This document shows, one piece after another, positions 24,958-40,692 of a DNA stretch of 64,000 nucleotides. Origin of the DNA: a virus; IMG/VR virus record IMGVR_UViG_3300010885_033832, positions 31,417 through 95,416 of that record. One strand, given 5' to 3'. Each line of letters opens with the position of its first letter. Position 1 is the stretch's first letter. The notes beneath the pieces were generated by a model, which ran no database searches, was not told the origin of the DNA, and saw only the letters and a program-made list of their open reading frames with translations. The position numbers and the translations under genes were made by a program.

Positions 24958-25278
24958 TTATACGAGGTAGTCCGATAGGTCAGACTCGAGGGCTGGGCGT
25001 GGCTTCGCGCCGACAATTGTCTTGACGACTTCTCCGCCAACGAACACCTTCATCGTCGGAATCGAGACAACACCATACGCGGTGGGTGTCTCGGGATCCT
25101 CTTCGATGTTCAGCTTCACGATTGTAAGGCTGGGGTATTCATCGGCGATAGCGTCAAGTACTGGACCAACGGCGCGGCAGGGGCCACACCATTCAGCCCA
25201 GAAGTCAACGAGGACCGGACCCTCGGCGCTGAGCACATCGGCGTCGAAGGTCGAGTCGGTTGTTTTTCCAGCGGGCAC
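24958..25278 (-). CDS. trxA: Thioredoxin
   Basis: VLVDFWAEWCGPC...SIPT. Confidence 0.97.
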   Translation of the reverse strand: MPAGKTTDSTFDADVLSAEGPVLVDFWAEWCGPCRAVGPVLDAIADEYPSLTIVKLNIEEDPETPTAYGVVSIPTMKVFVGGEVVKTIVGAKPRPALESDLSDYLV

Positions 25279-25652
25279 TACACAACCACCTTGACGGTGT
25301 TGTCACCCTTGAAGATAGCCTTGAGTGTATCGGCGTTGAGGACGTCGGTCACCTCGAGTCGGTTCTTCGACTGGAACTGCTGAACGGCGATCTGGGTACC
25401 GTTCTGGTAGACACCGGGCTTGTCCCCAATTACGGACACGAACTCAAGTTCGCGGAGGCGACGCTGAAGTTCGGTGACGCTGGTGGACTCGCGCTGGTGC
25501 AGTGGGTTCTGCAGAATCGCAGCGAGCACAACCTGAACGGCGGTGCTCGGTGCTTCGACAGACGCGGGGGCAGACGGCGCAGCGGGCTTGGACGGAGTCG
25601 AGGCGGGCTCGAAGGGTTCGGGGACGATGGAGTCGATGTTGTTATCAGTCAT
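25278..25652 (-). CDS. Peptidoglycan-binding-domain protein
   Basis: VTELQRRLRELEF...GVYQNGTQIAVQQFQSKNRL resembles PG_binding_1. Confidence 0.7.
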   Translation of the reverse strand: MTDNNIDSIVPEPFEPASTPSKPAAPSAPASVEAPSTAVQVVLAAILQNPLHQRESTSVTELQRRLRELEFVSVIGDKPGVYQNGTQIAVQQFQSKNRLEVTDVLNADTLKAIFKGDNTVKVVV

Positions 25653-25672
25653 GGAATTCATTCTACCGAAGG

Positions 25673-25858
25673 TTACTCACCCTTACTCGAGAGGACGGCG
25701 AGCGCCACCGCGGCCAGTCCTAGAGCTTGGATAGTAGCGAACGGATTACCGAGATCGACGGCGACGACTATCGCAGCGACGGCGAGCGCCAGCGCGACGA
25801 CAGGTAGCCAGTTGGTGTTGCTGATGATGAAACGGATTCGTCGGAGTAGTTGATTCAT
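25673..25858 (-). CDS. Small two-TM membrane protein
   Basis: Two hydrophobic helices; leaderless TAGGAT promoter. Confidence 0.65.
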   Translation of the reverse strand: MNQLLRRIRFIISNTNWLPVVALALAVAAIVVAVDLGNPFATIQALGLAAVALAVLSSKGE

Positions 25859-25870
25859 ACCGAAATCCTA

Positions 25871-26050
25871 TCACGACTCTTCATCGCGGATCGTGGCCCG
25901 GAGATCGTCGGCGCGAGTACGTCGGCGCTTCGTGCGCTTGTCGGCATGCGTTCCCCACGCGTTCGATTGGGCGCGCTCGGCGTCTGCCCGTGCCTTGTCT
26001 GGATTCGCAGCGGGCACGTAACGGCGTGGCTTCTTGTCGTCGGCGCTCAT
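25871..26050 (-). CDS. Small basic protein (HADKRTKRRRTR)
   Basis: TACAAT 6 nt upstream of ATG; 59 aa. Confidence 0.7.
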   Translation of the reverse strand: MSADDKKPRRYVPAANPDKARADAERAQSNAWGTHADKRTKRRRTRADDLRATIRDEES

Positions 26051-26293
26051 CCCCCCATTGTACCGCGAGCGCCGGAGTCCCGTCAACGGCGCTCAGCGCC
26101 TCTCTGACGGCGTAACGCGTTCCGGCCACTACGACAGACGGCCTGCCGGAGTGACGCGTCTAACGACGGCGCAGAGCGTCGGCGAGCGCCTAACGGCGTC
26201 GGCGTCCGGCGTCCGCGATCGCAGCGCAACGGCGAGCGCCGACCAACGGCGAAACGCCCAACCGTTTCCACTCGGCTGGGCGTTTCGTCGGCG

Positions 26294-26509
26294 CTAGTTG
26301 TTCGGGTCGAATTCTTCGACGTGGCGGACGTTGCAGACTTCGCAGTCGTCGACGATGGCGAGCGCCTTACCGTCGGCGAAGTACTGGAACGTGGCGGGCT
26401 GGTTGTGGAGCGTGGTGTCGTCGTTGTCCCAGCCACAGGCTCGGAATCCAAACTCTCCCTCGTTCTCGGCGACGCACCCGTTTGGGTCGGTGTCGTAGTA
26501 TCCGCTCAT
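26294..26509 (-). CDS. Cassette gene, acidic Cys-containing 71 aa
   Basis: GAAAGGAAACACA-ATG; own promoter and terminator. Confidence 0.8.
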   Translation of the reverse strand: MSGYYDTDPNGCVAENEGEFGFRACGWDNDDTTLHNQPATFQYFADGKALAIVDDCEVCNVRHVEEFDPNN

Positions 26510-26721
26510 TGTGTTTCCTTTCGTCGCGGTCGGCGTTTCCTCCCGCGTAATCAGTCTATCGGCGGGCACCGACATGTAATAGCCTCCCCTCCCCGACTGT
26601 GGCCGGAATCAGGCCGGCCATCGATGGCCACAACGTCACGACGACGAGCGCCGAAGTCGCCGCGGACAGTCGACGCAGACGACGAAACGCCTACCCTTTC
26701 GGGTAGGCGTTTCGGAGGGAC

Positions 26722-26967
26722 TCACGCCTGAGGGTAGGCGCGAGTGGACAGGCTCTCGGTGCTCTGAGCGAGTCGGGCAAACGTCTTCGCGAGACGGTAC
26801 AGTGCGTCTCCGACGACGACGCGGACGCGGTACTCGGCGTCGACCTTCGGCGTGAAGGGGTAATCCTCCGTGATGGTCGCAACGATGTCGGCATAGCACG
26901 TCGCGCAGACTGCGTCGTACGCTCCGTCGGCGAAGTTGGCAGAGCAAAGGCGCTCGTCGTGGTACAT
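26722..26967 (-). CDS. Cassette gene, 81 aa
   Basis: GAAAGGA SD; cassette architecture. Confidence 0.8.
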   Translation of the reverse strand: MYHDERLCSANFADGAYDAVCATCYADIVATITEDYPFTPKVDAEYRVRVVVGDALYRLAKTFARLAQSTESLSTRAYPQA

Positions 26968-27114
26968 GGTCGATTCCTTTCGGTTGGGGAGGCGTGTTCC
27001 TCCGTGACTCCACTCTATTGGCGAGCGCCGACATGTAACGGTATCCCCTCCCCATCGGCGAGCGCCGCACAACGACAAACAGCCTCCCCGAAGGGAGGCT
27101 GTCGGTCGTCCAAG

Positions 27115-27309
27115 TCAGGCGAAGTCGGGGAGGTGATACTTTGCGGCGAGAGCGGATTCCATTGCTTGGAGCGAGGCGATGGACTCGGCGATGTGGTCGC
27201 GCATATCTCCGACCTCGTTCGCTTTCCACAGCACCATCGCGTCGGTGAGTGACGCGGCGGCGGCCGCGTAGTTTGACAGCACAGCGCTGTCGGTAGCGTC
27301 GTACAACAT
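27115..27309 (-). CDS. Cassette gene, helical 64 aa
   Basis: GAAGGAG SD; cassette architecture. Confidence 0.8.
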   Translation of the reverse strand: MLYDATDSAVLSNYAAAAASLTDAMVLWKANEVGDMRDHIAESIASLQAMESALAAKYHLPDFA

Positions 27310-27420
27310 GGTGACTCCTTCGATTCGGGAGGCGTGTTCCTCCGTGATATCAGACTACGGCACGGCACGGACAAACAACAACCTCCCCTCCCCGAATCGG
27401 GAGGAGAGGTTGTCGGCGCG

Positions 27421-27615
27421 TCAGAGGATTATCGGCTCAACGACTAGGCGCGTTTCGTTCAGCGCACCGCAACCGCACCGATACCATTGCGCGATTCGAC
27501 CATCGGTGCGCCAGATGATATGAATGGTCGGGTGTTCGTGACCGACTCGGCATCGTGGGCAACGGTGATTCAGCGGGGAACGGCGTTCCTCCGTCTGGAT
27601 GATATCGTCTAACAT
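27421..27615 (-). CDS. Cassette gene, zinc-ribbon 64 aa
   Basis: CPRC...CGCG; GAAAGGA SD. Confidence 0.75.
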   Translation of the reverse strand: MLDDIIQTEERRSPLNHRCPRCRVGHEHPTIHIIWRTDGRIAQWYRCGCGALNETRLVVEPIIL

Positions 27616-27712
27616 TCGGGATTCCTTTCGTTCGTGATTCCAGACTACGGCCGCAACGGCATAGACGGCGATAGCCCCCCTGACGGTGTGTCAGAGGGGC
27701 TACCGTATGGCG

Positions 27713-27949
27713 TTACGCTTGGCGAGCGTATCGGGCAACCGCATCGGCAATTCGCGTACCGATGTAGTCGGGCGTGAGCATCGAACGGCGAGGCGCGCGT
27801 GCTTGGGCGAACCGTCCAGAGGTGTTGCCGACCTCGTGAACGATGACAACATAATCGCTACGCGAGATGTTGCCGAGGTAGCGGAGTAGGTACTCCGCAC
27901 CCTCGTAGGTGAACGGCGTGAGGGTGCCGCGTTTGAGTGTGATGGACAT
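27713..27949 (-). CDS. Cassette gene, 78 aa
   Basis: AAAGGAGG SD. Confidence 0.8.
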   Translation of the reverse strand: MSITLKRGTLTPFTYEGAEYLLRYLGNISRSDYVVIVHEVGNTSGRFAQARAPRRSMLTPDYIGTRIADAVARYARQA

Positions 27950-28040
27950 TGTGTCCTCCTTTCGTTTTCAGACTACGGCATACCCCCGACACGAAACAAC
28001 CAACCCCCACCGCATAGGCGGTGAGGGTTGGCGTTTGGCG

Positions 28041-28271
28041 TTACCGCGAGCGCCGAAGACTACGGCGGTACACTTCTTCCCCGACATTCCAACTGAGTAG
28101 GGCAGAGGCGACAACGATACAACCGACAACCATAACGCGGTCGAATGTAGCGTTGTAGGACAGTCCCGACATCTCGGCGGAACGGGCGAGGCTATCGGCG
28201 GTAAGCGCGGTGACAACCGCAACCGCATACAGCCCCAGCGCCATAAGGGCGCGGAATCGACGAATGGACAT
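28041..28271 (-). CDS. Cassette gene, two-TM membrane protein
   Basis: GAAAGGAG SD; two hydrophobic segments. Confidence 0.75.
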   Translation of the reverse strand: MSIRRFRALMALGLYAVAVVTALTADSLARSAEMSGLSYNATFDRVMVVGCIVVASALLSWNVGEEVYRRSLRRSR

Positions 28272-28374
28272 TCCATTCTCCTTTCGTTGGTGATATCAGA
28301 TTACAACGGCGAGCGCCGAAACGGCAACAACCCCCCACCGCATAAGCGATAGGGGGTTGTCGGCGGCGACTACT

Positions 28375-28479
28375 TCATCGGTTGAAGACGAAGTCGAGGT
28401 CGTGCGTGTGGTACGCAATTCCCTCGGTGTCGCGAGTACCGCACTCGGGGCACGGGTCGGTGAGGTCACCAGTAGCCAT
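28375..28479 (-). CDS. Cassette microprotein, 34 aa (CPEC, HTH residues)
   Basis: AAGGAGG SD; cassette architecture. Confidence 0.65.
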   Translation of the reverse strand: MATGDLTDPCPECGTRDTEGIAYHTHDLDFVFNR

Positions 28480-28601
28480 AAGAGTCACCTCCTTGGGGCA
28501 ACGGCGTGGGGCGTGTCCCCCACGCCGACAACGATACGCGGCCCCACGCCGACAACGCAACAACCCCCCACGCCGATTGGCGTGAGGGGCTGTTGGTGGC
28601 G

Positions 28602-29003
28602 TTACTCGGCGGTGGCTTCGGCGGTAACGGGGGCGTTCGCGTTGGACACTACAACGCGCTTGGCTTCAGCGGTACACCAGAACAGGTCGTGACCGAGCGT
28701 TTCCGCTTCGATTTCGACATTCGTTCCCGTGCGGTCGTCGGTCTGCCAATCGCGAACGCGCAAGCGACCGACGACTACGATACGGTCGCCCTTGTTCAGC
28801 GACGCCATTGAGTTCACGGCGAGAGCGCGGAACGCCGTGACCGTGTACCAATTGGTCGAAGCGTCAAGCCACTTTTCAGTAGCCTTGTCGTATCGTCGCT
28901 GTGACGACGCGAGGCGGAATGAAGTGATGGGCAGACCTTCTGCCGTCACGATATGGCGTGGTGTCGTGGCGATAAGCCCCGTCACCGTGAGCGTGTCGCT
29001 CAT
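28602..29003 (-). CDS. ssb: Single-stranded DNA-binding protein (actinobacterial SsbB-like, no acidic tail)
   Basis: ITSFRLASSQRRYD...TNWYTVTAFRALA...LNKGDRIVVVGRLRVRDW...EIEAETLGHDL. Confidence 0.93.
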   Translation of the reverse strand: MSDTLTVTGLIATTPRHIVTAEGLPITSFRLASSQRRYDKATEKWLDASTNWYTVTAFRALAVNSMASLNKGDRIVVVGRLRVRDWQTDDRTGTNVEIEAETLGHDLFWCTAEAKRVVVSNANAPVTAEATAE

Positions 29004-29116
29004 GTGATTCTCCCTTGCTTGTGTGAGCCGTGTTGCCCACACCTCAACGATAGCGCGGCCACACCCGACAACGCAACAACCCCCCCACCGCATAAGCGAT
29101 AGGGGGTTGTCGGCGG

Positions 29117-29296
29117 TTAGACAGGTTCGTTGTTGATTGTTCCGTTGGCGCAGGCTTGGTTGTATTCCTCAACTAGTCGCGTTGCGTTGTCCACTACGAT
29201 AAAGTTCGCACCTACTCCCTCACCGAAGATACCCTCTTCGGTAATCGCGCGAGTGATGAGCGTGTGGGCTTGTTTCAGGATTTCGTAATCCGTCAT
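29117..29296 (-). CDS. Cassette gene, 59 aa (MTDYEILKQAH...)
   Basis: GAAAGGA SD; below the track length cutoff. Confidence 0.75.
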   Translation of the reverse strand: MTDYEILKQAHTLITRAITEEGIFGEGVGANFIVVDNATRLVEEYNQACANGTINNEPV

Positions 29297-29364
29297 TTCG
29301 TTCCTTTCGTTCGGTTGAGAGTGTAGCGCGCCACCGTGTTCCCAACGGTGGCGCGCCGTGTCAC

Positions 29365-29547
29365 CTATTCGGTGACGGTGGCGTTCGCCGTGTTATCGGC
29401 GTTAGCCGTAGAGAGCTTTTCGATTTGGGCGTTGATTTCGCCCAACCGCATAGCGTTCTCCACCATCAACTCTGCCACCGTGTTTCGCATTTCTTTTAGG
29501 GTGGCGATTGAGTTTTCCAGAAACTCAATCTGTTCTTGCTTGTCCAT
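29365..29547 (-). CDS. Cassette gene, coiled-coil 60 aa
   Basis: GAAAGG SD; heptad pattern. Confidence 0.75.
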   Translation of the reverse strand: MDKQEQIEFLENSIATLKEMRNTVAELMVENAMRLGEINAQIEKLSTANADNTANATVTE

Positions 29548-29655
29548 TGGACACCTTTCGATTAGCGGGGCGTGTTCCCCACATTCACAACGATACGCCG
29601 AACGCCGAACAAACGCCAACACCCCCCACCTTTCGGCGGGGGGTGTCGCGTTCCG

Positions 29656-29781
29656 TTATTTCAGTTTGTCCAAGATTGCCATTATCTCGGCGCGTTGTGC
29701 TTCGGGCAACGCTTCGATTCGTTCCGCAGCGTCGGGGACGAAAAGGCTATCCAAATCGTCGGGGTTAGTCCAGTCGAACAT
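29656..29781 (-). CDS. Cassette microprotein, 41 aa
   Basis: GAAAGGAAACA-ATG. Confidence 0.75.
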   Translation of the reverse strand: MFDWTNPDDLDSLFVPDAAERIEALPEAQRAEIMAILDKLK

Positions 29782-29886
29782 TGTTTCCTTTCGGGGGCGG
29801 TTCCCCCATACCGCAAAGGTAGCACCGGCATCGGCCAGAACGCAAACACCCCCCACACCGTTAGGCGTAGGGGGCGTTCGTTCGCG

Positions 29887-30069
29887 TTACTTGTTCTTGG
29901 ACTTGGTGAACGGTGAGTGGTTCATCGCGTAGATGTATTGGCGTTGACGGCGATTGAACCGTGGGCGGTGCTTGAGCAGATAGAACCAGTTGATCGTGAA
30001 TAGCGTGACGGCGATACCCGTCACGAAACTCGCGACAACCGTCACGATGAATATCGTGTCGTTGGACAT
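29887..30069 (-). CDS. Single-TM membrane protein, 60 aa
   Basis: N-terminal TM helix and basic tail; GAGGG SD. Confidence 0.7.
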   Translation of the reverse strand: MSNDTIFIVTVVASFVTGIAVTLFTINWFYLLKHRPRFNRRQRQYIYAMNHSPFTKSKNK

Positions 30070-30134
30070 TGTTTCCCTCTCGTGAGAGTTGGGAACGGTG
30101 TGACCCTCTCGCGAGAGCCACACCGTTCGATGGA

Positions 30135-30422
30135 CTAGGGGAGGCGAACCGAAGTCACCGAAGCGACATTGGTGAACTCGCCTTTGGATACCGCTTCCGC
30201 GATAGCAGGGTACGCCGAGAGAATGGATTTGGTGTCCGTTGTCTTGCGTTCGGTGACGGTTACGCGAGCGATTGTCTGCCCTTTGTATTCCACCGTTCCC
30301 TCGCCGACCGCGCCGATGATGAGCGCGCGGAGCGTTTCACTCTGCTTGGTGAGTGTGTCGATTTCCGCCTTGAGAGCGCGGAACTCGGCGACCGCGTCAG
30401 CGACCTTTTTGGTTACGACCAT
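30135..30422 (-). CDS. Coiled-coil/beta protein resembling the C-terminal part of YqaJ-type exonucleases or Gam-like proteins; paralog of 43441-43734
   Basis: KAEIDTLTKQSETLRALII...YKGQTIA...DTKSILSAYPAI. Confidence 0.65.
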   Translation of the reverse strand: MVVTKKVADAVAEFRALKAEIDTLTKQSETLRALIIGAVGEGTVEYKGQTIARVTVTERKTTDTKSILSAYPAIAEAVSKGEFTNVASVTSVRLP

Positions 30423-30534
30423 TGTCGTGTCCTTTCGTTGGGAGAGGGCGTGTCCCTCTCGTGATTCCACTCTACGCGGCCACACCCGACAAACGCAAAC
30501 ACCCCCCACCTTTCGGTGGAGGGTGTTCGTGGCG

Positions 30535-30789
30535 TTAGCCGATGTAGCGAGCGTAAACGGTAACGCGCTTACTGCGGTTGGAGTTCTTGCGCGAAGTCGC
30601 TTCAAACGACCCAGCAGGGGTGAATCCAATCAAGATACCTCGCTTGATTGACACCACATAACTTGCTGGTGCGTTGTCGCTAACGACGGCCCATTCTCCT
30701 GGATTTGCTTTGAGGGCTTTAGCAATCGCCCCGTACTTACCTGTTTGCACAGCGCGCTTCGGCGGTGCTTCCCAGCGGATTTTTACCAC
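30535..30789 (-). CDS. Conserved actinophage small protein (NPGEWA...VYARYIG)
   Basis: AAAGGAGA SD; motif familiar from actinophage hypotheticals. Confidence 0.8.
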   Translation of the reverse strand: MVKIRWEAPPKRAVQTGKYGAIAKALKANPGEWAVVSDNAPASYVVSIKRGILIGFTPAGSFEATSRKNSNRSKRVTVYARYIG

Positions 30790-30897
30790 GTCTCTCCTTT
30801 GCGAGGGGCGTGTCCCCTCTCGGTTCTACTTTACGACCAGAGCGAACACAACGCAAACAACCCCCCCACCCGATAGGGCAGGGGGGCGCGGTTGGGG

Positions 30898-30990
30898 CTA
30901 GTACCCGAACACCCACTCACCTTTGTGTTCGCAGGTGAAGAGCGCACCGCACTCGTCGCACGGCACTAGCACAATCTCTTCGTTGTCCAT
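30898..30990 (-). CDS. Cassette microprotein, 30 aa (CDEC..C.H)
   Basis: AAAGGAGA SD; own promoter and terminator. Confidence 0.65.
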   Translation of the reverse strand: MDNEEIVLVPCDECGALFTCEHKGEWVFGY

Positions 30991-31100
30991 CGGTTCTCCT
31001 TTGTTGGCAGGGCGTGTTCCCCACATCTCCACCGTACGCGATCGTGGGGCGAACCGACAAACACCCCCCACCCTTTCGGGTGAGGGGCGTTCGGTTCAGG

Positions 31101-31589
31101 CTACCAACTTGCTCGGTAGGTGAAGTCACAATCGGCGAGTGACTTGTTGGCGAGTATCTGCGAGAGTTCGTCACGAGTGGTTTCCAAGTCCTTCCAGTAC
31201 CACTCGTCAATCTCGGTCGAACCGAAGAAGAAGCCAGCCTGTGGTGGCAGGTGTTCTTCCGCGATTGCCGTTCGGTTTGCTTCGCTCGCGCCGAGAATGA
31301 TGTCGCACAGGTTTCGCAACGCTTCCAAGCCGTCACGCGGTACGCCGATTTCTTGGCACTCGTCAAGCCCATCAGCGAAGTTGCTCACGAACCATTGGTG
31401 AATGGCGTTCGCTTTCCGCCAATACATTACCGTCACAGCGAGGGTCGCAGACGGCGAGTATTCGGGCAGTATCGCAGGGTCGAACCCTGCCGTTTCCAGC
31501 ACACTCGCAAACTGCTCGCGGTCTGCTTCGGGTCGGTGTTCCCAACCCGATAGGTACTTCTCGGCAGATAGATACATATCCAGTCCCAT
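31101..31589 (-). CDS. Conserved phage protein (MGLDMY...YWRKANAIHQWF family)
   Basis: Recognisable widespread phage motif; AAAGGA SD. Confidence 0.85.
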   Translation of the reverse strand: MGLDMYLSAEKYLSGWEHRPEADREQFASVLETAGFDPAILPEYSPSATLAVTVMYWRKANAIHQWFVSNFADGLDECQEIGVPRDGLEALRNLCDIILGASEANRTAIAEEHLPPQAGFFFGSTEIDEWYWKDLETTRDELSQILANKSLADCDFTYRASW

Positions 31590-31698
31590 TATGTTTCCTT
31601 TGCTTGGTGTGAACCGTGTTGCTCACATTTCCAAACTACGGCACCGGCGGCCACAACGCAAACAACCCCCCACCGTGAGGTGAGGGGTTGCTCGGCGG

Positions 31699-31905
31699 TC
31701 ACTCGTATTGAGCGTGGATTACATCCCAGCAGGGGAAGCAGTACGGCTCTCCGTTGTCGCGGTGAGTTTTCTTACCACAGGCATCACAGGGAACTTTCCC
31801 CTCTCCACCGTCATAGCACGAATAGCAGGTGTAACCGTCTTCTTCGAGAATGTCCTCGTCGAGTTGGTCGCAGGTACAGGTCGGGTTGTTCGGGTTCTTT
31901 TTCAT
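31699..31905 (-). CDS. Cys-rich zinc-finger protein, 68 aa
   Basis: Four Cys pairs; TGATG coupling. Confidence 0.7.
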   Translation of the reverse strand: MKKNPNNPTCTCDQLDEDILEEDGYTCYSCYDGGEGKVPCDACGKKTHRDNGEPYCFPCWDVIHAQYE

Positions 31906-32033
31906 CAGTTCCCCTCGCAATCGTGTCCGTAGGACAGTTCCTGCTCGTCAACCTCGTTGGTCGGGTCGAACACTCGCGAGCATTCGACACACTTGAGCAG
32001 AAGTCCTGCTCGCGTAATGGTGAGTTCCATCAT
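31905..32033 (-). CDS. Zinc-finger microprotein, 42 aa (CVEC...GHDCE)
   Basis: GAAAGGA SD. Confidence 0.7.
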   Translation of the reverse strand: MMELTITRAGLLLKCVECSRVFDPTNEVDEQELSYGHDCEGN

Positions 32034-32096
32034 CTCGGTTCCTTTCAGGGGCGGTTCCCCTCTACTTCCAATCTACGCGATCGGGGCGCAAACGCA

Positions 32097-32191
32097 AAGT
32101 ACCCCCCGAGCGAAAGGGATAACTCTCGGGGGGCGTTTCTTTGTGTGTGGCGTTACCGTCAAGGGGTAAACACGATTCCCTGACAACCACT
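32097..32191 (-). ncRNA. Candidate ~95-nt sRNA filling a gene-less cassette
   Basis: TGnTAGCCT -10 at 32198-32203; no SD or ORF; hairpin with G.U pairs and loop AAUCGUGUUUAC; terminator 32100-32134. Confidence 0.6.
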
Positions 32192-32275
32192 CCGTCTAGG
32201 CTACCACACCGTGACGCGCGCAAAATACCAAAACAACGAACCCCCCTACCGAAGTAGAGGGGTTCGCGGTGACCG

Positions 32276-32590
32276 TCAGACGGTGAGGTTGCTTGCTTGG
32301 ATTTCAGCGAGCGAGCGCGGTTCCCAGTAGAGGTCGCGTTCGACCATCATTCCCATCGGACCGACCACGCCTGAGAGTTCCGAGAGCGAGAAGTATCCCA
32401 ACTCCATCTCGAAGCCGTTGACCAGACCGAAGAACTGGTCTTCGCCATCGAACTCGGTTGCGTACCAAGTCCAGTTCGCCCAGGGGGTGAAGTACTTGAC
32501 CGTAGCCATCGTTTCCTCAAGCGACTTGTTCTCGTTCGTGTAGAGCGGTGGAAGTGCTGCGCGCACCTCGTCGTTCATCAGTTCCATCAT
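32276..32590 (-). CDS. DUF2958-family protein
   Basis: LPPLY...VKYFTPWANWTWYATEFDGED.FFGLV.GFE.ELGYFSLSEL...GP.G..VERDLY. Confidence 0.88.
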   Translation of the reverse strand: MMELMNDEVRAALPPLYTNENKSLEETMATVKYFTPWANWTWYATEFDGEDQFFGLVNGFEMELGYFSLSELSGVVGPMGMMVERDLYWEPRSLAEIQASNLTV

Positions 32591-32692
32591 TTCCTTTCGG
32601 GGAGAGTGTTTCTCTCCACACTTCGACTCTACGCGCCGACCTCGCAAAACGCAAACAACCCCCCTACCGAAGTAGGGGGGCGTTCGGGGGGA

Positions 32693-32818
32693 CTAGTCCT
32701 CGTCGCGACAATCCCAGCAGAGCCAAGAACCGAGGTTGTCGAACGCGTCGATGGGGTCACCGTCGTCGTATGCGCCACATTCGTCGCACACTATTTCGGC
32801 ATAAGGACTGATAGCCAT
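32693..32818 (-). CDS. Acidic zinc-finger microprotein, 41 aa
   Basis: CDEC...CWDC; GAAAGGA SD. Confidence 0.75.
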   Translation of the reverse strand: MAISPYAEIVCDECGAYDDGDPIDAFDNLGSWLCWDCRDED

Positions 32819-33046
32819 TGTGTTCCTTTCGGGGGGAGCGTTTCTCCCCACGCTTCTACAATACGACTCCGGCATCCGTAACGCAACGAACCCCCACCCG
32901 AAGGTGGGGGACTCGTCAGCGGTCGCGGTACTGCCAGTAGGTGTATAGAGTCCCGACGATGAAAGCGATCACATTCGGGAGGACGATTAGAACGAATATC
33001 AGCACTGAAGAAAAAAGGGGGAGCAGTTTCCCACTCCCCCAACCGA

Positions 33047-33370
33047 CTAGGCGTTAGCAGTTTCGCGCACGTTGACAGGGAACCACTGGTCGGCAACGAC
33101 CTCAACGAACGTGCCAGACCCTTCATCGTGTTCCCAGTCGCGGACCGTGACCGAACCGATGACCGTGATGTGGTCACCTCGGCGAACCGTTGCGATGATG
33201 TCGTACGCCATTTGGTCGAACGCCGTGAACGTGTAGTAGTTCCACTGGTCACCGCGCTCGTCGCGCTTCGTGCTGATTCGGAATGACGTAATCGCCGTTC
33301 CCTCGCTGGTCACCACTTGGCGTGGTGTTGTGGCAACAAGTGCGTTGCCGAGAATAATCGTGTCCGACAT
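33047..33370 (-). CDS. ssb: Second, shorter SSB paralog (OB fold only)
   Basis: ATTPRQVVTSEG.AITSFRI...NYYTFTAFD.MA...GDHITVIGSVTVRDW. Confidence 0.85.
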   Translation of the reverse strand: MSDTIILGNALVATTPRQVVTSEGTAITSFRISTKRDERGDQWNYYTFTAFDQMAYDIIATVRRGDHITVIGSVTVRDWEHDEGSGTFVEVVADQWFPVNVRETANA

Positions 33371-33456
33371 TCTGTCCTTTCCTGTGGCAGGCGTTTCCTC
33401 CCACACTTTGACACTACGCGAAAAAGGGGAGAGGCGCGAGCCTCCCCCCTCCGACA

Positions 33457-33579
33457 CTACTTGTCGAATCGCCAATCCTCGTCTGTGTCGTAGACGGCTT
33501 CCTCGGTTTCGTCCTCTGGGTCGTCTGGCGGAGTGTAGTACGCCCGCTCCGCGCGACCCTGGTCGCTGAAATATCCCAT
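33457..33579 (-). CDS. Highly acidic microprotein, 40 aa (MGYFSDQG...DEDWRFDK)
   Basis: GAAAGGA SD; cassette architecture. Confidence 0.65.
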   Translation of the reverse strand: MGYFSDQGRAERAYYTPPDDPEDETEEAVYDTDEDWRFDK

Positions 33580-33683
33580 TTCATTTTCCTTTCGGGGAGG
33601 GATTTCCTCCACACCTCAACCGTACACCCGACCCCGGACACGAAACAACCTCCCCCACCCGAGGGTGAGGGATGCTGTCGGGA

Positions 33684-34115
33684 TTACTCCCAGATGTTTC
33701 CGTCTGCTCCGTATTCCTCCCAAAGTACTTGGGCTTGAGCAATCGCTTCGTCGAGTTCGTGGAAGACCTCGCTAAACGATTCGTCTCCGTCACGGAGCGA
33801 GACAACCTCGAACCACGAATTGTTGATCCAATCGAAGTATTCCGCACCCTTGGCTTCCCATTCGGCAAGGTCGGCGTCCGTCTTGATACCGAATGACTCA
33901 AGGTCGTCCGTGTAGCGCAACACCTCGTAGTCCGAGAGTAGAGCCTTGCGAGCGTGAATCCGCATCTCTCCGTTGCGATAGACGCGGAACCGAGGTGTCG
34001 TGAAGTCGGCCCACACCAATTCCCAATCGTGAGTCCAAGTGTGGAAAGCCGAGTCCTGTCGAGCCGAGTCCGGCTCCAGAGGGAGGCTCACGCCTCCCTC
34101 CTTCGCCTGGCTCAT
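33684..34115 (-). CDS. Acidic Trp-rich hypothetical protein
   Basis: 143 aa; ATGA coupling. Confidence 0.8.
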   Translation of the reverse strand: MSQAKEGGVSLPLEPDSARQDSAFHTWTHDWELVWADFTTPRFRVYRNGEMRIHARKALLSDYEVLRYTDDLESFGIKTDADLAEWEAKGAEYFDWINNSWFEVVSLRDGDESFSEVFHELDEAIAQAQVLWEEYGADGNIWE

Positions 34116-34522
34116 TCGGATTCCTCGATGTCGCGGAGGTAGCCGACCTTGAACATCGCGCCCATCGGCTCGTCGTGCGAGTATCGGGTGCAGGTCAGGT
34201 TGCCCGACTCAGGGTCGTACTCGAAGTCAAGGCGGTACTGCCCATTGATTGCGAGCGTGTCAACGATGGTGCCGACCTTACAGATGGCGTGTCCCGAAAC
34301 TCGGTCCCAATTCATCGCCTCGCTCCAGATGACGATGTCCTCGGTGTTGGTGATTCCGTGACGACTCGTCCATTCGGGGAGAAAGTTCTCGCTGTAGTCC
34401 TCTTGGTTGTCGTCCCAGCACCCGTGACAATCATCGCTCGGTGTGGATTTGTCGGTCACTTCGTCGTACACCTCACAGGTACACTCGGTCGTGACGACGG
34501 CTTTCATAATTGTGTTGGTCAT
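34112..34522 (-). CDS. Acidic hypothetical protein (RYSHDEPMG)
   Basis: 136 aa; GAAAGGA SD. Confidence 0.8.
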   Translation of the reverse strand: MTNTIMKAVVTTECTCEVYDEVTDKSTPSDDCHGCWDDNQEDYSENFLPEWTSRHGITNTEDIVIWSEAMNWDRVSGHAICKVGTIVDTLAINGQYRLDFEYDPESGNLTCTRYSHDEPMGAMFKVGYLRDIEESE

Positions 34523-34548
34523 AACTTTCCTTTCCGCAGGGAATCTCC

Positions 34549-34824
34549 CTACACCTCAACACTACGCTTCGACCTAACTGTGGTCAAGTACCCCTCCCAC
34601 TCGTTCGTCAGGTGCCCAGCGGAGATGAGTATGTCCCCAACCGTGAGTCCGAGTCCCTTGGCGAGTAGCGCGAGGTAGTCACTCGACACCTCTTTCTTTC
34701 CGTGCTCGACCTCAGAGATGTAGGCGTTCGATACTCCCGAGGCTCGGGCGAGCTCGAGTCCGGTCATACCGAGATCGTGTCGGCGTGCGTAGATCGTGTA
34801 CCCAATGGCAGCGCGTGATTTCAT
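34549..34824 (-). CDS. XRE-family HTH regulator, ClgR-like
   Basis: ELARASGVSNAYISEVEHGKKEVSSDYL resembles ClgR YLSEVERGxKExSSE. Confidence 0.85.
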   Translation of the reverse strand: MKSRAAIGYTIYARRHDLGMTGLELARASGVSNAYISEVEHGKKEVSSDYLALLAKGLGLTVGDILISAGHLTNEWEGYLTTVRSKRSVEV

Positions 34825-34882
34825 GTCGTTCCTTTCGTGAACGGAGCGAAGCGCACCCCCGAAAGGGTGCGCTCCGTCTTGG

Positions 34883-35209
34883 TCAGTCTTCCTCGTCCTC
34901 GTCAAAGCCCTGAGGAATGAGGTCGCAGAACCCATCGTTCGGGTTCTCGTGGTTGGTGTAGACAGCGTTCACGAACCGAAGGCCGCACGACTCCTCGTAC
35001 CACTCCTTCACCTTTTCCAGCATGGCGTATGAGTCCATGTCGCTCGCCGAGATGAGAGGGTCGTAGCCGTACTCCGCCATTTGCTTCATCTGCTCCTCGT
35101 CCATCAAGATATAAATCTTGTGGCAGGTGTCGAACGCGATGCCACTAGCCTCCGAGAGTGCCGACTCAACAGCACCCCAGCCAGTCTGACCTTTGAGTTT
35201 CAGTTTCAT
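34883..35209 (-). CDS. Conserved phage protein (IAFDTCHKIY...SCGLRF)
   Basis: 108 aa; GAAAGG SD. Confidence 0.8.
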   Translation of the reverse strand: MKLKLKGQTGWGAVESALSEASGIAFDTCHKIYILMDEEQMKQMAEYGYDPLISASDMDSYAMLEKVKEWYEESCGLRFVNAVYTNHENPNDGFCDLIPQGFDEDEED

Positions 35210-35308
35210 TATGTGCCTTTCCGTGGCAGACCATCTGCCCACAACATCACTCTACGCCGACAGCGAAACCAACGCAAGTAGGGGGTCACCGAAGTGACCC
35301 CCCATTGC

Positions 35309-35629
35309 CTAGCGATTGGTGCGTGACCGAACGAACGCGTCAGCGTGTTGAGCGAACTGCGAACCGAGGTCCGAGAACGAGCGGTCAAGACCCGACCCCG
35401 TAGATTCGGTGTCAATGAACGCGAGGAGCGTGACACGAGCAAGTGCTTGGTGCAACTCGTCGTAGTACTCGTACCAGTCGTTCGCTACTCCGTCACTCCA
35501 AGCGAGGAGGTATTGCGACCGACCCGTTCCCGTGTCCTTCTCAACGAACGAGATCGTGACCTGCGTTCCGATGAACAACTCGGACAGGTCAATCCTGCGA
35601 GCGGTGACTACTGTGTCGAAGTCCGACAT
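35309..35629 (-). CDS. Cassette gene, 106 aa
   Basis: GAAAGGA SD. Confidence 0.8.
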   Translation of the reverse strand: MSDFDTVVTARRIDLSELFIGTQVTISFVEKDTGTGRSQYLLAWSDGVANDWYEYYDELHQALARVTLLAFIDTESTGSGLDRSFSDLGSQFAQHADAFVRSRTNR

Positions 35630-35721
35630 AGTGATCCTTTCCGTAGGGAGCGTTTCCCCCCACACCTCAACGATACGCAAAAAAGGAGGAGAGGTCAACG
35701 ACCCCTCCTCCTCTCTTGCGG

Positions 35722-36165
35722 TTAGACCGAAGCGTTCTCGGTCACCGCCATTGCTTCCTGCCAGATACACAGGTTGGTTTCCAGACGGTCACCGAACACG
35801 CGAACCCAGTCCGCGAGGTCAACCGTTTCCTCGGTCACGAATGTCTGGAGCATATTGACGTGGAGGTCAACGGGGTGAGCGTACGAGAACCCGTTGCTTG
35901 ACCAGACGGGGACGGTCACGATTCGACTGTCCTCGTCACTCCGCCAACCGACTCCCTCGGTTCCGATGATGGCGACCCGGGGCTTCCTCCACGAGTCCGT
36001 GTCCTTGAGCGTGACGAAGACCAGCGGTTCGACCTCGCACTTCTCAAGCCCATCGAACTTGCCGTAGGTCAGTTCGAGGATTTTGTGGATGTGCTTGGTC
36101 AACGCCTCGCTGTCCACCTTGTGGGCAATGCAGCCTTTCCTGCGGGATTCATACCTGTCGTTCAT
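35722..36165 (-). CDS. Cassette gene, 147 aa
   Basis: GAAAGGAACACA-ATG. Confidence 0.8.
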   Translation of the reverse strand: MNDRYESRRKGCIAHKVDSEALTKHIHKILELTYGKFDGLEKCEVEPLVFVTLKDTDSWRKPRVAIIGTEGVGWRSDEDSRIVTVPVWSSNGFSYAHPVDLHVNMLQTFVTEETVDLADWVRVFGDRLETNLCIWQEAMAVTENASV

Positions 36166-36250
36166 TGTGTTCCTTTCGGTGGCCGACCCTCGGCCACATT
36201 CCCAAACTACGCGAGAAAGGGGAGAGGTGCAAGCACCCCTCCCCAATCGG

Positions 36251-36745
36251 TCACACGAAGTCGCTGACCGTGTCGCGTTCGCGAGAGACCTTGTAGTCCT
36301 CGTCCGAGTAGAAGTCTTTCGACTGTACCCACTCGTCACGCGCGGTTGACTCTCCGTACTGCTCAACCAACTCCGAAGCGTCAATCTCGTGGTCGTAGGA
36401 AACACCGTCAATCTCAAACTCAACATTGACGTAGCCCATTTCAGAGACCAGTTCGTCCCACATTTCCGAGATGTAATCGGAAGCGAGAATCGGACGAAGC
36501 GTTCCGTACTTCATCATCACGCCGACCTCGTTCTCCCACTCACCGACCTTGTAGTTCTCGAACAACTCCTCGTCTGTGTCGTAGTAGAGGGCGTGTCCGT
36601 CCTGAAGCGCGTTGGCCGCGACCAAGAATCGCGCCCACTTCTGCTCCGTGGTTTCCTCCTCCAACGGAACGCCATTGACACTCACGGCAGTTGCGTTGTC
36701 GAAGCGGTGTTCTTGACCGTCTGCGGTCGAGACAATAACCAGCAT
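36251..36745 (-). CDS. Very acidic cassette protein, 164 aa
   Basis: GAAAGGA SD; D/E-rich. Confidence 0.82.
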   Translation of the reverse strand: MLVIVSTADGQEHRFDNATAVSVNGVPLEEETTEQKWARFLVAANALQDGHALYYDTDEELFENYKVGEWENEVGVMMKYGTLRPILASDYISEMWDELVSEMGYVNVEFEIDGVSYDHEIDASELVEQYGESTARDEWVQSKDFYSDEDYKVSRERDTVSDFV

Positions 36746-36839
36746 TGCTTCCTTTCCGTGGCAGAACCGTTCTGCTCACATTCCCAAACTACGACAAAAG
36801 GGAGGAGGTCGCAATGACCCCCTCCCCTCGTGTCGCTTC

Positions 36840-37166
36840 TTACGCGAAGACCCGACCGGCAATCCCCAGTGCTTCGACCACACGGCTCACGGCGAAGAGC
36901 GAGTCTCCCCCGATGTGCCATTCGTAGAGTTCGTCCATTTCTGGCGCACCGTCTTCGTATCGCTTCCAGTCGTACAGCGTTACTCGAGTACCGTCCTCGA
37001 ACAGCAAGTCCCACTCGGTCGTAACCTTGCTTCCCGAGTCGTTCCCTAGAGAGATGGTTGGTGATCCAAACACCGTCTCGATGTGTTCACGAGTTGTCTC
37101 GATGTACCCTTGCAGACTCGTTCCGTTTGCACCCGAGTCGTTCTCGGATAGTGTCATAAATTTCAC
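36840..37166 (-). CDS. Conserved phage protein (TSLQGYI...LYDWK...EWHIGG)
   Basis: Recognisable phage motif; GAAAGGA SD. Confidence 0.8.
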   Translation of the reverse strand: MKFMTLSENDSGANGTSLQGYIETTREHIETVFGSPTISLGNDSGSKVTTEWDLLFEDGTRVTLYDWKRYEDGAPEMDELYEWHIGGDSLFAVSRVVEALGIAGRVFA

Positions 37167-37220
37167 TGCTTGTTGTCCTTTCGGTTGGTGGTGAGGGGAG
37201 GCCGCAACCTCCCCTCGCCG

Positions 37221-37457
37221 TTACTCGTTTCGTTCGCGAATGAGCGTGAACTCAAACTCGTCCGTGTCCTTGTCGAACGCCCGTTGGAACTCGGCTTCGT
37301 CTTGGAAGTAGAACCAAATCATATTGTCGAAACTCTCGTCCTCCACCATTTTCTCGTAGAGGTCGGGGTCGTTCAGTATGACCACTTGCGCTTCTGTATC
37401 TCCTGGCACGACTTCATCTTTCCAGATGTAGTCAACCCACGTTACTCGTTCAGCCAT
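37221..37457 (-). CDS. Acidic cassette protein, 78 aa
   Basis: AAAGGAAACACA-ATG. Confidence 0.78.
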   Translation of the reverse strand: MAERVTWVDYIWKDEVVPGDTEAQVVILNDPDLYEKMVEDESFDNMIWFYFQDEAEFQRAFDKDTDEFEFTLIRERNE

Positions 37458-37533
37458 TGTGTTTCCTTTCGTTGTGGCAATCCAAGTCAACCACGAAAGG
37501 GGGGAGAGGTCAACGACCCCTCCCCCCTGACCG

Positions 37534-37938
37534 CTAGTAACTAGCGTGTGGAACTACCTCACCGAGATACTTGGCAACATCATAGATGTCCTCAAGCGAG
37601 ATGTGCTTGGACTCACCCTTGTTGTTGTACGCGCTGGCGAACCCTTGGAAGTATCGGTGCTTTTCCGAACCGACTTCCATAATGATTGCTACCCAATCAT
37701 CCGCGAGGTGCTTGATGAACAAGTCCTCCCAGATGATGACGGTGTCCTCGTCTGTCTCCTCGTTGTAGGTCGTGGAGGGCAGACCACCCTCGTCTGTGTC
37801 GAGGAATCCGAACAGCACTTGTCCGTCTTGCTCCTGCGAAATCATCTCGACAGGGTAGTTCATAATGTCCTCGCGGAATGCTTCAGGGTCTTTGACCGCG
37901 AAGTAGTTGGTACGGACCTTGCCGTAGTAGTTCGCCAT
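37534..37938 (-). CDS. Conserved hypothetical protein (MANYY...RTNYFAVKD...EVGSEK.RY)
   Basis: 134 aa; TAATG coupling. Confidence 0.82.
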   Translation of the reverse strand: MANYYGKVRTNYFAVKDPEAFREDIMNYPVEMISQEQDGQVLFGFLDTDEGGLPSTTYNEETDEDTVIIWEDLFIKHLADDWVAIIMEVGSEKHRYFQGFASAYNNKGESKHISLEDIYDVAKYLGEVVPHASY

Positions 37939-38108
37939 TACTCGCTCACCTGCTCGACAATGTTTTCCATTGTGAACTCGCCACCCTGAACAAAGAAGTC
38001 ATCCGAAATCATCTCGTCAAACATCTTTTCCGCTTCCTCGATACTGGCCGCTTCGACCGTGGCTTCGAGGTTCTTGATGAGTGTGGCGTATGCCGTGTAC
38101 TTTTTCAT
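37938..38108 (-). CDS. Small protein with VEAxSxEEA (DpnD/PcfM-like) motif
   Basis: 56 aa; GAAAGGA SD. Confidence 0.72.
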   Translation of the reverse strand: MKKYTAYATLIKNLEATVEAASIEEAEKMFDEMISDDFFVQGGEFTMENIVEQVSE

Positions 38109-38199
38109 TCTGTTCCTTTCCGATCGCGTGACCATCACCCGACCTGTTTCCAAACTACGGCAAAGAGGGAGGAGACGATAGTCTCCCCCCTCCTGTCCG

Positions 38200-38832
38200 T
38201 TACTTCGTGGCGAGTTCGATTGACTTGGGGCAATCGGCGTACCAGCATTCGGGGTCAGTCTCGACCTCGCAGTAGCACTCGCGGTCACGCTTCTGGTAGT
38301 CGGCGTGGCTGTTGGGGATGTCGTACTCCTCGTCCACGATTACCTCACCGTCCTTGAGCGTGAGTTCTCCACCCCAGCCCTGCTCCTCCTCGTACCACCA
38401 CGACATTTCGAGGTGCGGATACTGCTCGGCAAGGGCAGCGACCACGCCACGCGGATAATCCCACGGAGTCTGGAATGTGATTCGGATTTGGTTGTCCTCG
38501 TCCTCGAACTCGATGTCTCCGTCACCAGCGTCCCACTTACAACCCCAGTTGTCGGAGTTCCACGAGTACCAGTTGGTGTCGGTGTTCCCGACCTGCTCGC
38601 CGTTTACAACGCCCCTGCGACCAAAGTAATCGTCCAACTTGTCGGCTGGCGGAGCAATGATGTTCCAGAACGAGAAGCCACCCTCGTTCAGTTTGATTTC
38701 GCCTGTCGGCTCGAAGCCGTCATAGACCATTTCAGGTCGGGGCATTTCCATCTCGCGGAGGAACGATTGGAGTTCCATTTTGTCTCCGCTGGGCGCGGTG
38801 ACGGTCACGCTGTTGTAGACCCAGTTAGGCAT
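38200..38832 (-). CDS. YubB/DUF1281 ferredoxin-like-domain protein
   Basis: MPNWVYN...WYSWNSDNWGCKWD...FQTPWDYP...WYEEEQG. Confidence 0.82.
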   Translation of the reverse strand: MPNWVYNSVTVTAPSGDKMELQSFLREMEMPRPEMVYDGFEPTGEIKLNEGGFSFWNIIAPPADKLDDYFGRRGVVNGEQVGNTDTNWYSWNSDNWGCKWDAGDGDIEFEDEDNQIRITFQTPWDYPRGVVAALAEQYPHLEMSWWYEEEQGWGGELTLKDGEVIVDEEYDIPNSHADYQKRDRECYCEVETDPECWYADCPKSIELATK

Positions 38833-38918
38833 ACTGCTTCCTTTCATCGGGTAGCCAAGTGGCTACATTACAACAATAAACGAAACCCCCCTCCGAGTCA
38901 AGGGAGGGGGGTCGCGTT

Positions 38919-39209
38919 TTATCTGATGGGTTGTATTCGGTAAGCGACCTGTTCGCTCATCTTGGCAGCGAGGAACATCTTGTCGGTTACTTCGGGGAGA
39001 GGCTCGTCTCCCCACCAGTCCTGCTTGTCCACATCAAAGTAGTCGAGCAGGTAGGAGACCATTTCCTCGGAGTAGTCGGAGGTGTATAGCAGGCACTCCT
39101 TGGTGTCGGTCTTGGCGGTCAGGGGCGATTGGAAGAATCCACGCGCAATCCGATTCACATCAGATTCCCAGATTAGTTCCGCTTCGAGAGCGGTGGTTTC
39201 ACTCCACAT
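38919..39209 (-). CDS. Hypothetical protein, 96 aa
   Basis: GGAGG SD; overlaps upstream gene. Confidence 0.72.
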   Translation of the reverse strand: MWSETTALEAELIWESDVNRIARGFFQSPLTAKTDTKECLLYTSDYSEEMVSYLLDYFDVDKQDWWGDEPLPEVTDKMFLAAKMSEQVAYRIQPIR

Positions 39210-39345
39210 CAGTGACCTCCAAGAGCATTGTCTCGGTTTCGATTTCTTTGTACTCCCCCTGACCAATGAGGTTCTGCGCTTCTTCGAGCGTCTCGGCGAT
39301 GACCTCGACTCGTTCCCCTGTGAGGAATGTGTATGTCTTTGGCAT
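39199..39345 (-). CDS. Small protein with VIAETLEEA motif, 48 aa
   Basis: GAAAGGA SD; same motif as 37938-38108. Confidence 0.7.
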   Translation of the reverse strand: MPKTYTFLTGERVEVIAETLEEAQNLIGQGEYKEIETETMLLEVTDVE

Positions 39346-39434
39346 AATGTCCTTTCCGTGAGGAGACCGTCTCCCCACGCTTCCAAACTACACAACAAGA
39401 GGGAGGAGCACAATGCTCCCCCCTCCGTGTGTTG

Positions 39435-39815
39435 TTACTGTGGGCAGACCACCTTGACATTGGCGATGTGCTGGGCGAGAGCAGGTCGCTCGGAGTCCGA
39501 GGCTTCCTCAATCAAAGCCCAGTCGGCTTCATCCCAGTTACTGGTGTCCACCAGTTTGATTCCCTTGGCTACTCCGTACGAACCATCCTCGGCGAAGTAG
39601 GTCGTGGTAGCGACCGGCTGGGTCAGAGTGGCGAGTCGCTGGTTGATGATGTAGTCGAGTTGTTCTTCCTCGTCTCCATCAGGCCGCACCCATTCCTGCT
39701 CCTCGTCATCGAACCACGCCCGTTCGTGAAACTTGGCCATCAACGATTCATCGTCAAGCCAGAAGCCGTCATCGCTCGGATCGTAGTAGACCACGAAGTG
39801 GATTTGCTTGGTCAT
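39435..39815 (-). CDS. Acidic cassette protein, 126 aa
   Basis: GAAAGGA SD. Confidence 0.8.
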   Translation of the reverse strand: MTKQIHFVVYYDPSDDGFWLDDESLMAKFHERAWFDDEEQEWVRPDGDEEEQLDYIINQRLATLTQPVATTTYFAEDGSYGVAKGIKLVDTSNWDEADWALIEEASDSERPALAQHIANVKVVCPQ

Positions 39816-40607: not shown

Positions 40608-40692
40608 TGTGTTTCCTTTCGGTTGAGTGACGGGTGTCACAATTCCACATTACACAAGAAAAGAGGGGAGCGCAAGGCTCCCCTCCCTCTCG

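Follow-up and report, generated by a model that had tools for sequence, protein, structure and literature searches.

The minus strand of the window, by which is meant the whole 64-kb stretch of DNA analysed, carries an array of about 40 small-gene units between about 44400 and about 26000. Each unit has a terminator, formed by a GC hairpin and a U-rich tail, together with a promoter that is sigma-70-like and a conserved block, GA..GTGG. Downstream of these are a short leader hairpin, in which the stem is variable and the loop has 3-6 nt, an SD block of the form (C)GAAAGGA and the start codon. The -35 element of the array promoters is TTGCGT or TTGACN and overlaps the terminator tail or loop, and the -10 element is TAGnnT. 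In the upstream half of the array the -35 lies inside the terminator loop, not in the tail. The leader loops AACACG, ACACG and AACCG are all found downstream of the gene-less unit described below (window 26967-31620), and the loops AAACG, AAACA, ACCC, CGG and GGG upstream of it (window 32587-44332).

In T4-type phages, PeSL cassettes are small ORFs flanked by a terminator stem-loop and an early promoter (PMC2839356, PMC4122927). About 35-40 units of the window array have a terminator stem-loop and an early promoter between small ORFs, with indels between relatives where cassettes meet, and can be called PeSL-like; the label is an analogy only, without sequence homology to the T4-type PeSLs.

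The 95-kb IMG/VR virus record that holds the window has a completeness estimate of 56% and is recurrent in freshwater metagenomes. The portal protein has its nearest match in Actinomycetia phage DSL-LC01 (69% identity) and its next nearest in the Microbacterium phages Pumpernickel, Big4 and Cece of about 190 kb (57-63%). The host is concluded to be an actinobacterium, because nearly all of the 877 matching portal records are actinophages. No tRNA or tmRNA was found in the 64-kb window.

The gene-less unit

The gene-less unit is located at 32097-32206 on the minus strand, to which all coordinates of its elements refer. Its elements are TGgTAGCCT, which is like a -10, then a hairpin whose loop has 13 nt, then a linker rich in A and finally a strong terminator. 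With the upstream terminator included (32267-32097), the order of the elements is that of a standard cassette, minus a gene. The unit is the only one in the array without an ORF; the other long gaps are genes missed by the crude caller, or a 29-aa hydrophobic ORF. The latter (32917-33003, minus strand; VLIFVLIVLPNVIAFIVGTLYTYWQYRDR) is strongly hydrophobic, has a GTG start, lies directly 3' of a terminator and has neither an SD nor an array-type promoter.

The upstream neighbour is a DUF2958 gene (32587-32276), identified by PF11171 on homologues of its 103-aa protein. The terminator of this cassette, found with the terminator scan, has a 14-bp stem and a UUCG loop (32236..32267). Sequence and PWM show an extended -10-like element, TG-G-TAGCCT, at 32198..32206, with no in-register -35. 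In the MFE fold, hairpin 1 (32147..32190) consists of two helices, which together have 13 pairs, with a bulge of 5 nt (32156-32152) and a loop of 13 nt; 5' to 3', from 32190 to 32147, it reads GUGGUUGUCAGGG, then the loop AAUCGUGUUUACC, then CCUUGACG, the bulge and GCCAC. The loop (loop 1) is at 32165..32177, with CGUGUU at 32174-32169. It is followed by a single-stranded, A-rich linker, ACACAAAGAAAC (32135..32146), and by the terminator hairpin (32101..32134), which folds into a GC stem of 10 bp plus one isolated pair with a 10-nt loop (loop 2). The segment CCUUUCG is found in or at the edge of this loop (32111..32117). The U-rich terminator tail (32087..32100) holds the -35 of the next cassette, TTGCGT (32097-32092), of which the promoter -10 is TAGATT (32075-32070).

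An intrinsic terminator is thus combined with the lack of a translated ORF. There is no SD, and the only ORFs that cross the unit are of 37 and 53 aa and start in or next to the promoter. These are not credible, because the terminator is read through and the frame is broken by a 1-nt deletion in a close relative (see below). The fold of hairpin 1 has a lower minimum energy on the minus strand (-13.9 kcal/mol) than on the plus strand (-9.8 kcal/mol), and the helix contains 3-4 G.U pairs and no internal mismatch, with an outer extension of 5 bp. Its stability is unexceptional (z = -1.46; 16 of 200 shuffles fold equally well), and that of the terminator hairpin is exceptional (-21.4 kcal/mol, z = -3.35). 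A reading made earlier from the sequence only had described a unit with a terminator and without SD or ORF, and a minus-strand fold favoured by its G.U pairs; both descriptions are borne out by the sequence, the ORF check, the terminator z score and the folding energies. The two loops, 13 and 10 nt, are the largest in the array, against 3-6 nt in leader hairpins and 4-8 nt in those terminators that were found. An antiterminator-type pairing of the 3' arm of hairpin 1 with the 3' arm of the terminator was considered and judged to be a by-product of G-rich and C-rich arms. A search of 25000-35000 with Rfam cmscan, at E up to 10, gave no match on the gene-less unit, including the c4 and 6C families; the nearest matches were chance hits on the upstream terminator.

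The sequence-only reading had taken TGn-TAGCCT for the promoter of the unit. With a PWM of 34 array promoters the -10 hexamer scores 7.0 bits, which is inside the array range of 2.9-12.9 and makes it acceptable by itself. The -35, however, is out of register: its zone scores -14.2, against mostly 3-22 in the array, and the downstream block scores -7.7, both outside the array range. As a whole the putative promoter is the weakest of the array: each of the 34 array promoters scores higher, and so do about 110 other positions. The terminator-tail/-35 zone of the unit is placed for a -10 that would lie upstream by about 10 nt, at a position now occupied by CACGGT. The element TG-G-TAGCCT is identical in the close relative. 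One RNA run, which has 7% of the sampled words and consists of assembled contigs that are blind to small RNAs, transcript ends and strand, gave no contig over 31965-32295 and pieces on several other cassettes.

Complementarity of the two loops to the cassette leaders

The CGUGUU of loop 1 is complementary to AACACG or GACACG at all ten leader places for which such a match had been claimed. AACACG is found at 26998, 27338, 29034, 29340, 29576, 31018 and 31620, and GACACG at 28512, 30449 and 30809. One example is the AACACG loop in the leader of the gene 31589-31101 (31615..31620, minus strand); the further sites identified by complementarity, also on the minus strand, are those at 26993, 27333, 28512, 29029, 29335, 29571, 30449, 30809 and 31013. 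Nine of the ten sites are inside leader hairpin loops; the exception is the one at 29340, which lies mostly in a stem and to which the claimed loop position does not apply. In addition, GUGUUU in loop 1 is complementary to AAACAC, the spacer between SD and start, in agreement with the suggestion that the loop could pair with SD spacers. A loop-1 complement of at least 6 nt is present in 13 of 40 leaders. Loop-1 complementarity alone exceeds chance modestly (P = 0.02 with loop shuffles, P = 0.011 with natural 13-mers from the same strand of the array and P = 0.02 in an accessibility-weighted energy test).

For loop 2 the complementarity is more widespread. The CCUUUCG of the terminator loop (32117-32111) is the perfect complement of the array SD block CGAAAGG, and its complement occurs as a 7-mer in 21 of 40 leaders and as a 6-mer in 33 of 40. 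The corresponding chance values are P = 0.009 with shuffles, 0.0013-0.0019 with natural 14-mers and 0.01 in the energy test. CCTTTCG occurs twice elsewhere on the minus strand, at an arm-tail junction and around a UUCG loop, and because of these two further occurrences its prior within terminator-like contexts is nearer a few percent.

Together the two loops form a split antisense to the canonical RBS CGAAAGG(A)AACAC. Eight leaders have a loop-1 site of at least 5 nt that begins 0-4 nt after a loop-2 site, and the RBS has the form CGAAAGG(A)AACAC, CGAAAGGACACGA or CGAAAGGAUAGACACGAU. These are the leaders of the genes starting at 43734, 40607, 37457, 36165, 32818, 30422, 29781 and 26509. The order in the mRNA, loop-2 site before loop-1 site, is the antiparallel order for an RNA with loop 1 in the 5' part and loop 2 in the 3' part. 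Only 6-10 of 18,107 natural 94-nt frames with the same geometry match the split site to this extent, and when at least 6 nt are required for loop 1 there are five leaders, a number reached by 0 of the 18,107 frames. An example of the composite site is the RBS CGAAAGGAAACAC (40609..40621, minus strand), where the loop-1 site comes directly after the loop-2 site; it belongs to a cassette for a DprA-like DNA recombination-mediator (39906-40607, minus strand; PF02481, E = 2e-52). The other putative target genes are without family, and no functional theme is apparent among them.

The joint energy statistic of both loops was reached by 0 of 400 loop shuffles. Complementarity of the accessible seeds to the leaders is supported as non-random, and it is stronger than the sequence-only reading had seen. 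Pairing energies at single sites are weak, from -3 to -7 kcal/mol, and the best sums for two sites are about -10 to -12 kcal/mol. AACACG loops and CGAAAGG do not occur together above expectation (four leaders, against about five expected), and the DUF2958 leader matches the loops no better than other leaders do. A match of 8 bp between loop 1 and codons 3-5 of the membrane-protein gene 30069 was rejected, being about what chance would give. The longest antisense matches of the gene-less unit to other genes are 10-11 nt, which is the chance level, and no paralogues of the unit were found in the 95-kb record.

The reading proposed here, with a rough probability of 0.45, is that an RNA derived from a cassette pairs with the RBS regions of cassettes and lowers the translation of a subset of them. 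A former cassette would persist, minus its ORF, as a non-coding transcription unit of about 95 nt with a 5' hairpin, an A-rich linker and a terminator hairpin, and its RNA would act in trans on the cassette mRNAs of the phage itself, the two oversized loops pairing with leaders. The SD block CGAAAGG would be the partner of loop 2 (CCUUUCG), and loop 1 (CGUGUUU) would pair with the SD-adjacent spacer AAACAC or with the AACACG loop of a leader hairpin. On leaders with the canonical RBS both loops would cover about 13 contiguous bases in antiparallel orientation, so that binding of the 30S subunit would be hindered and translation lowered. The best two-site leaders would be those of the genes starting at 43734, 30422, 40607, 37457 and 26509. 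Tuning of a subset is more probable than control of the whole array because the promoter is weak. The sequence-only reading had gone further and suggested a master sRNA. A non-coding locus with the build of a small transcription unit and with non-random leader complementarity is what was found, but the master role is not sustained by a weak promoter and single-site energies of -3 to -7 kcal/mol, and one weak unit would face about 27 complementary leaders made from stronger promoters, a stoichiometry problem which counts against a regulator.

Conservation, origin and the question of a relic

One close relative, IMGVR_UViG_3300027499_000013, about 86% identical over the array and 88% in the protein-anchored searches, has the gene-less unit, and DNA contigs of two related populations cover it. 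Searches anchored on proteins gave six loci in IMG/VR and 33 in the metagenome collection, with the unit only in the close relative (several samples). Five closer relatives of the DUF2958 protein (P0001-P0005) have 84-90% identity, and at the more distant DUF2958 loci there is no synteny. In IMG/VR, searches for hairpin 1 with exact and with gapped DNA patterns led to the close relative only, and blastn of the region against 50,697 phage records gave no match. The relatives anchored on the terminase (66-70% identity) have cassette arrays with the same CGAAAGGA SD, as has DSL-LC01; these terminase-anchored relatives were found to have neither an ORF-less unit nor CCTTTCG on the sense strand. 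Nor did a covariance model built on the unit detect a homologue in 259 kb of relatives. In DSL-LC01 nearly every cassette promoter is within a near-palindrome, ATTCTAAAGATGTTATAATAGAATCA, which looks like an operator.

The unit differs from that of the close relative at six positions, of which two are in the bulge, two in the linker (2 of its 12 positions), one in the tail and one at the loop-2 base 5' of CCUUUCG (32118). The unpaired positions outside the seeds differ at 6 of 28 (21%), which equals the divergence at third codon positions of the array genes (21%). No differences were found among the 46 positions of the hairpin-1 stem (26), loop 1 (13) and CCUUUCG (7) (Fisher P = 0.002 against the rest, in what is a single pairwise comparison with one relative). 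For hairpin 1 with its loop the contrast is 0 of 39 against 6 of 28 (P = 0.004), and for the two seeds alone P = 0.03. Loop 1 and the leaders are identical in the only relative that carries the unit. An identical run of 64 nt, 32218-32154, is not rare, since 13 other runs of at least 64 nt are found in 8.2 kb of the alignment, and the promoter and leader regions are generally the best-conserved parts of the array. The partition of the substitutions within the unit speaks for constraint on structure and loops, and against the idea that an identical block was exchanged recently.

The unit is most probably descended from an ordinary cassette, because the stretch UAACGCCAC...AAAGAAAC is like a stop codon and 3' UTR followed by a decayed SD. 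The linker, in its AAAGAAAC part, resembles AAAGGAAAC minus one G, and it is preceded by UAACGCCAC, a motif seen 3' of stop codons in other cassettes. The 3' ends of the TAACGCCAC type in other cassettes are at about 28605, 30540 and 28046. A simple inverted copy of a leader was rejected as the origin, as it would put the anti-SD 5' of the anti-loop at a distance of about 10 nt; the actual order is reversed, with a spacing of 57 nt.

Turnover of cassettes is seen in the lineage. The close relative has a near-empty cassette at 6592-6815, with a promoter, an AACACG leader, an SD, ATG plus seven codons and a terminator, and at 6271-6486 a gene-free tandem of three terminator hairpins; the window has neither of them at the corresponding place. 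In contigs of the lake populations, cassettes are removed or replaced at the joints 31687/31907, 35252/35674 and 30475/31058 (219, 421 and 582 nt); one of these joints has 5 nt of sequence in common. The joints are cassette-level gains and losses of the PeSL kind. In T4-type phages, PeSL recombination deletes or moves ORFs (PMC2839356, PMC4122927), and recombination of this type explains how an ORF-less unit can arise. The T4-type system is, however, from another phage group and has other promoter sequences, and recombination between two PeSLs leaves one chimeric PeSL, whereas the window unit is a unique hairpin of its own between two terminators.

From the same origin follows the alternative that keeps the most weight, a tentative one as well, namely that the unit is an inert relic. 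An internal deletion would have removed the ORF and left a decayed promoter, an altered leader hairpin, a decayed SD, a 3' UTR and a terminator, serving at most as a second terminator or spacer now. The complementarities would be due to chance and to shared cassette sequence, such as a flipped hairpin loop and UUCG-type or arm-tail motifs. Such a history accounts for the standard cassette order of the elements, for the likeness of AAAGAAAC to AAAGGAAAC and of UAACGCCAC to post-stop sequences of other cassettes, for a -35 out of register with CACGGT at the expected -10 position, and for the weak pairing energies. It is in line with the near-empty cassette and tandem terminator remnants of the relative and with the cassette-sized gains and losses between related populations (joints 31687/31907 and 35252/35674), and PeSL cassettes of T4-type phages mediate such deletions (PMC2839356). 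It requires, on the other hand, a joint coincidence of about 1e-3 or less, in which two loops match adjacent halves of the RBS in the right order, and it leaves the enlargement of both loops unaccounted for. The neutral divergence expected of a relic was not observed in hairpin 1 (0 of 39 against 6 of 28), in an alignment where long identical runs are common; the hairpin-1 and seed positions have 0 of 46 changes, while the neighbouring unpaired positions diverge at the synonymous rate. The absence of the relative's near-empty cassette from the window suggests that relics are short-lived, and the gene-less unit is common to both phages.

In favour of a working antisense RNA are the geometry-aware complementarity, the enlarged loops, the partition of the substitutions and the actinobacterial setting. 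Against it are the weak promoter, the weak energies, the lack of an excess of AACACG/CGAAAGG co-occurrence and the presence of cassette relics in the lineage.

Other readings, known systems and parallel hairpins

Another functional RNA is improbable. The transcript could be a regulator of host mRNAs, a protein-binding RNA or part of a DUF2958 mRNA that read-through extends at its 3' end; a model for the last of these is icaR in S. aureus, which has an anti-SD in its 3' UTR. The constraint on hairpin and loops fits any such role, the weak promoter of the unit makes read-through from the upstream cassette a plausible source, and in the cultured relatives described below the oversized C/U loops belong to 3' UTRs, being part of the terminators of upstream genes. 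Against such a role, the terminator that precedes the unit is strong, with its 14-bp stem, and the DUF2958 leader is no better a match than other leaders.

Very improbable is a site at the DNA level, where three copies of T(G/C)ACGGT on the same strand (32272, 32208 and 32155, minus strand, within 118 nt) would bind a protein as an operator, an origin or a partition-like site and the RNA fold would be incidental: nowhere else in the 95-kb record are three copies clustered within 160 nt, and in DSL-LC01 (OQ999401.1) a non-coding array gap of 259 nt (17455-17713) contains TGACCGT(G/C)A five times, in both orientations and 39-52 nt apart, but the motif was chosen after both sequences were seen, the copies are degenerate, the first (TGACGGTCA, a 9-bp near-palindrome) overlaps the DUF2958 stop codon and is TAACGGTCA (TAACGGT) in the relative, the inverted repeat of hairpin 1, whose G.U pairs are mismatches in DNA, is imperfect at that level, and the gaps of the window and DSL-LC01 are not syntenic.

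To our knowledge phage-encoded small RNAs are few, almost all of them from temperate phages of enterobacteria, and we know of no phage sRNA that targets a sequence common to a whole array of the phage's own early genes. The pairing proposed for the window unit has counterparts among characterized RNAs. In E. coli, OxyS and fhlA make two short loop contacts, one of them at the SD, and give a repression that neither site gives alone. This is loop-loop pairing with a structured target and is Hfq-dependent in vivo, whereas most SD sites of the window array are unpaired, and a kissing contact in the strict sense would be made with the AACACG class only. The 6C RNA, the UCCC-loop sRNAs and RNAIII of Staphylococcus are like the unit in having two hairpins with pyrimidine-rich loop seeds against the G-rich SD, without Hfq. 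In RNAIII the loop of the terminator hairpin is itself a seed. The unit differs from the 6C and UCCC-loop RNAs in that it has no Rfam match, that only loop 2 is C/U-rich, that the seeds are 6-7 nt, that the gene is phage-borne and that the proposed targets are the phage's own genes. The 6C sRNA of Actinobacteria binds targets with its C-rich loops without chaperones, and loop-exposed C/U-rich seeds that act without Hfq are a known mode of sRNA action in this phylum (PMC6486639).

The closest working analogue is c4 of P1 and P7, a phage small RNA with two loop-exposed segments directed at RBS sites. In c4 two short loop segments pair with two nearby mRNA sites around the RBS and block translation (PMC12197685). 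The c4 RNA is processed from the transcript under its control and has one target, whereas the window unit would face many cassette leaders; the two have no homology in sequence or structure, the unit has no Rfam match and its host is an actinobacterium.

Each of the cultured Microbacterium phages Pumpernickel, Big4 and Cece has one very stable terminator-like hairpin on the sense strand of the early array (z = -7.3, -5.5 and -4.6). The hairpins are located at NC_073468.1 4262-4343 in Pumpernickel (loop UUUCUUUUCUCCUUUCU), at ON637770.1 ~12953-12997 in Big4 (loop CUUCCCUUCCUCUCUGUCU) and at OP068343.1 ~12064-12110 in Cece (loop UCUCCCCUUUCUCUCUGUUCC). Their loops are of 17-21 nt and pyrimidine-rich (C/U), and each is the best complement of the RBS regions of its own phage, with no other of about 19,000-20,000 frames from an array of roughly 20 kb equal to it at 8 nt or more; for Big4 and Cece the RBS sets come from a crude caller that demands a purine-rich upstream sequence, so base composition is part of the signal. 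Between the three phages the stems vary, but the loops stay alike in character. The gene that this hairpin terminates in Big4 and Cece is followed by two small membrane-protein genes. None of the three hairpins is a homologue of the gene-less unit of the window. The recurrence, which counts in favour of the antisense reading, suggests that display of an anti-SD in oversized terminator loops is repeated in this phage clade.

A wider claim, that a two-loop RNA of a lytic actinophage is a split antisense to the RBS shared by its roughly 40 early cassettes and gives one handle on the translation of the takeover array as part of a habit of the clade, goes beyond the subset reading and is on the present sequences rather unlikely. 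If the RNA works as proposed, it would show how an RBS common to dozens of takeover genes, each transcribed independently, lets a phage time or damp them, loop-based regulation without Hfq would extend to actinophages, and loss of the gene from a cassette would be a route for the birth of an sRNA. The hairpins of the cultured Microbacterium phages make the idea testable at the bench although the window phage is uncultured.

Two large genes are found in the window outside the array. One is an open frame on the minus strand (2-13246) that exceeds 4,415 aa and continues beyond the end of the window; a helicase domain of the UvrD/REP type covers residues from about 2968 to 3285, and UvrD_C gives weak signals near 3965-4032. 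On the plus strand, 59976-63338 encodes a ribonucleotide reductase large subunit of 1,120 aa, of which residues 1-455 and 730-1086 match the family profiles; the unmatched middle part of about 275 residues is possibly an intein or an inserted domain.
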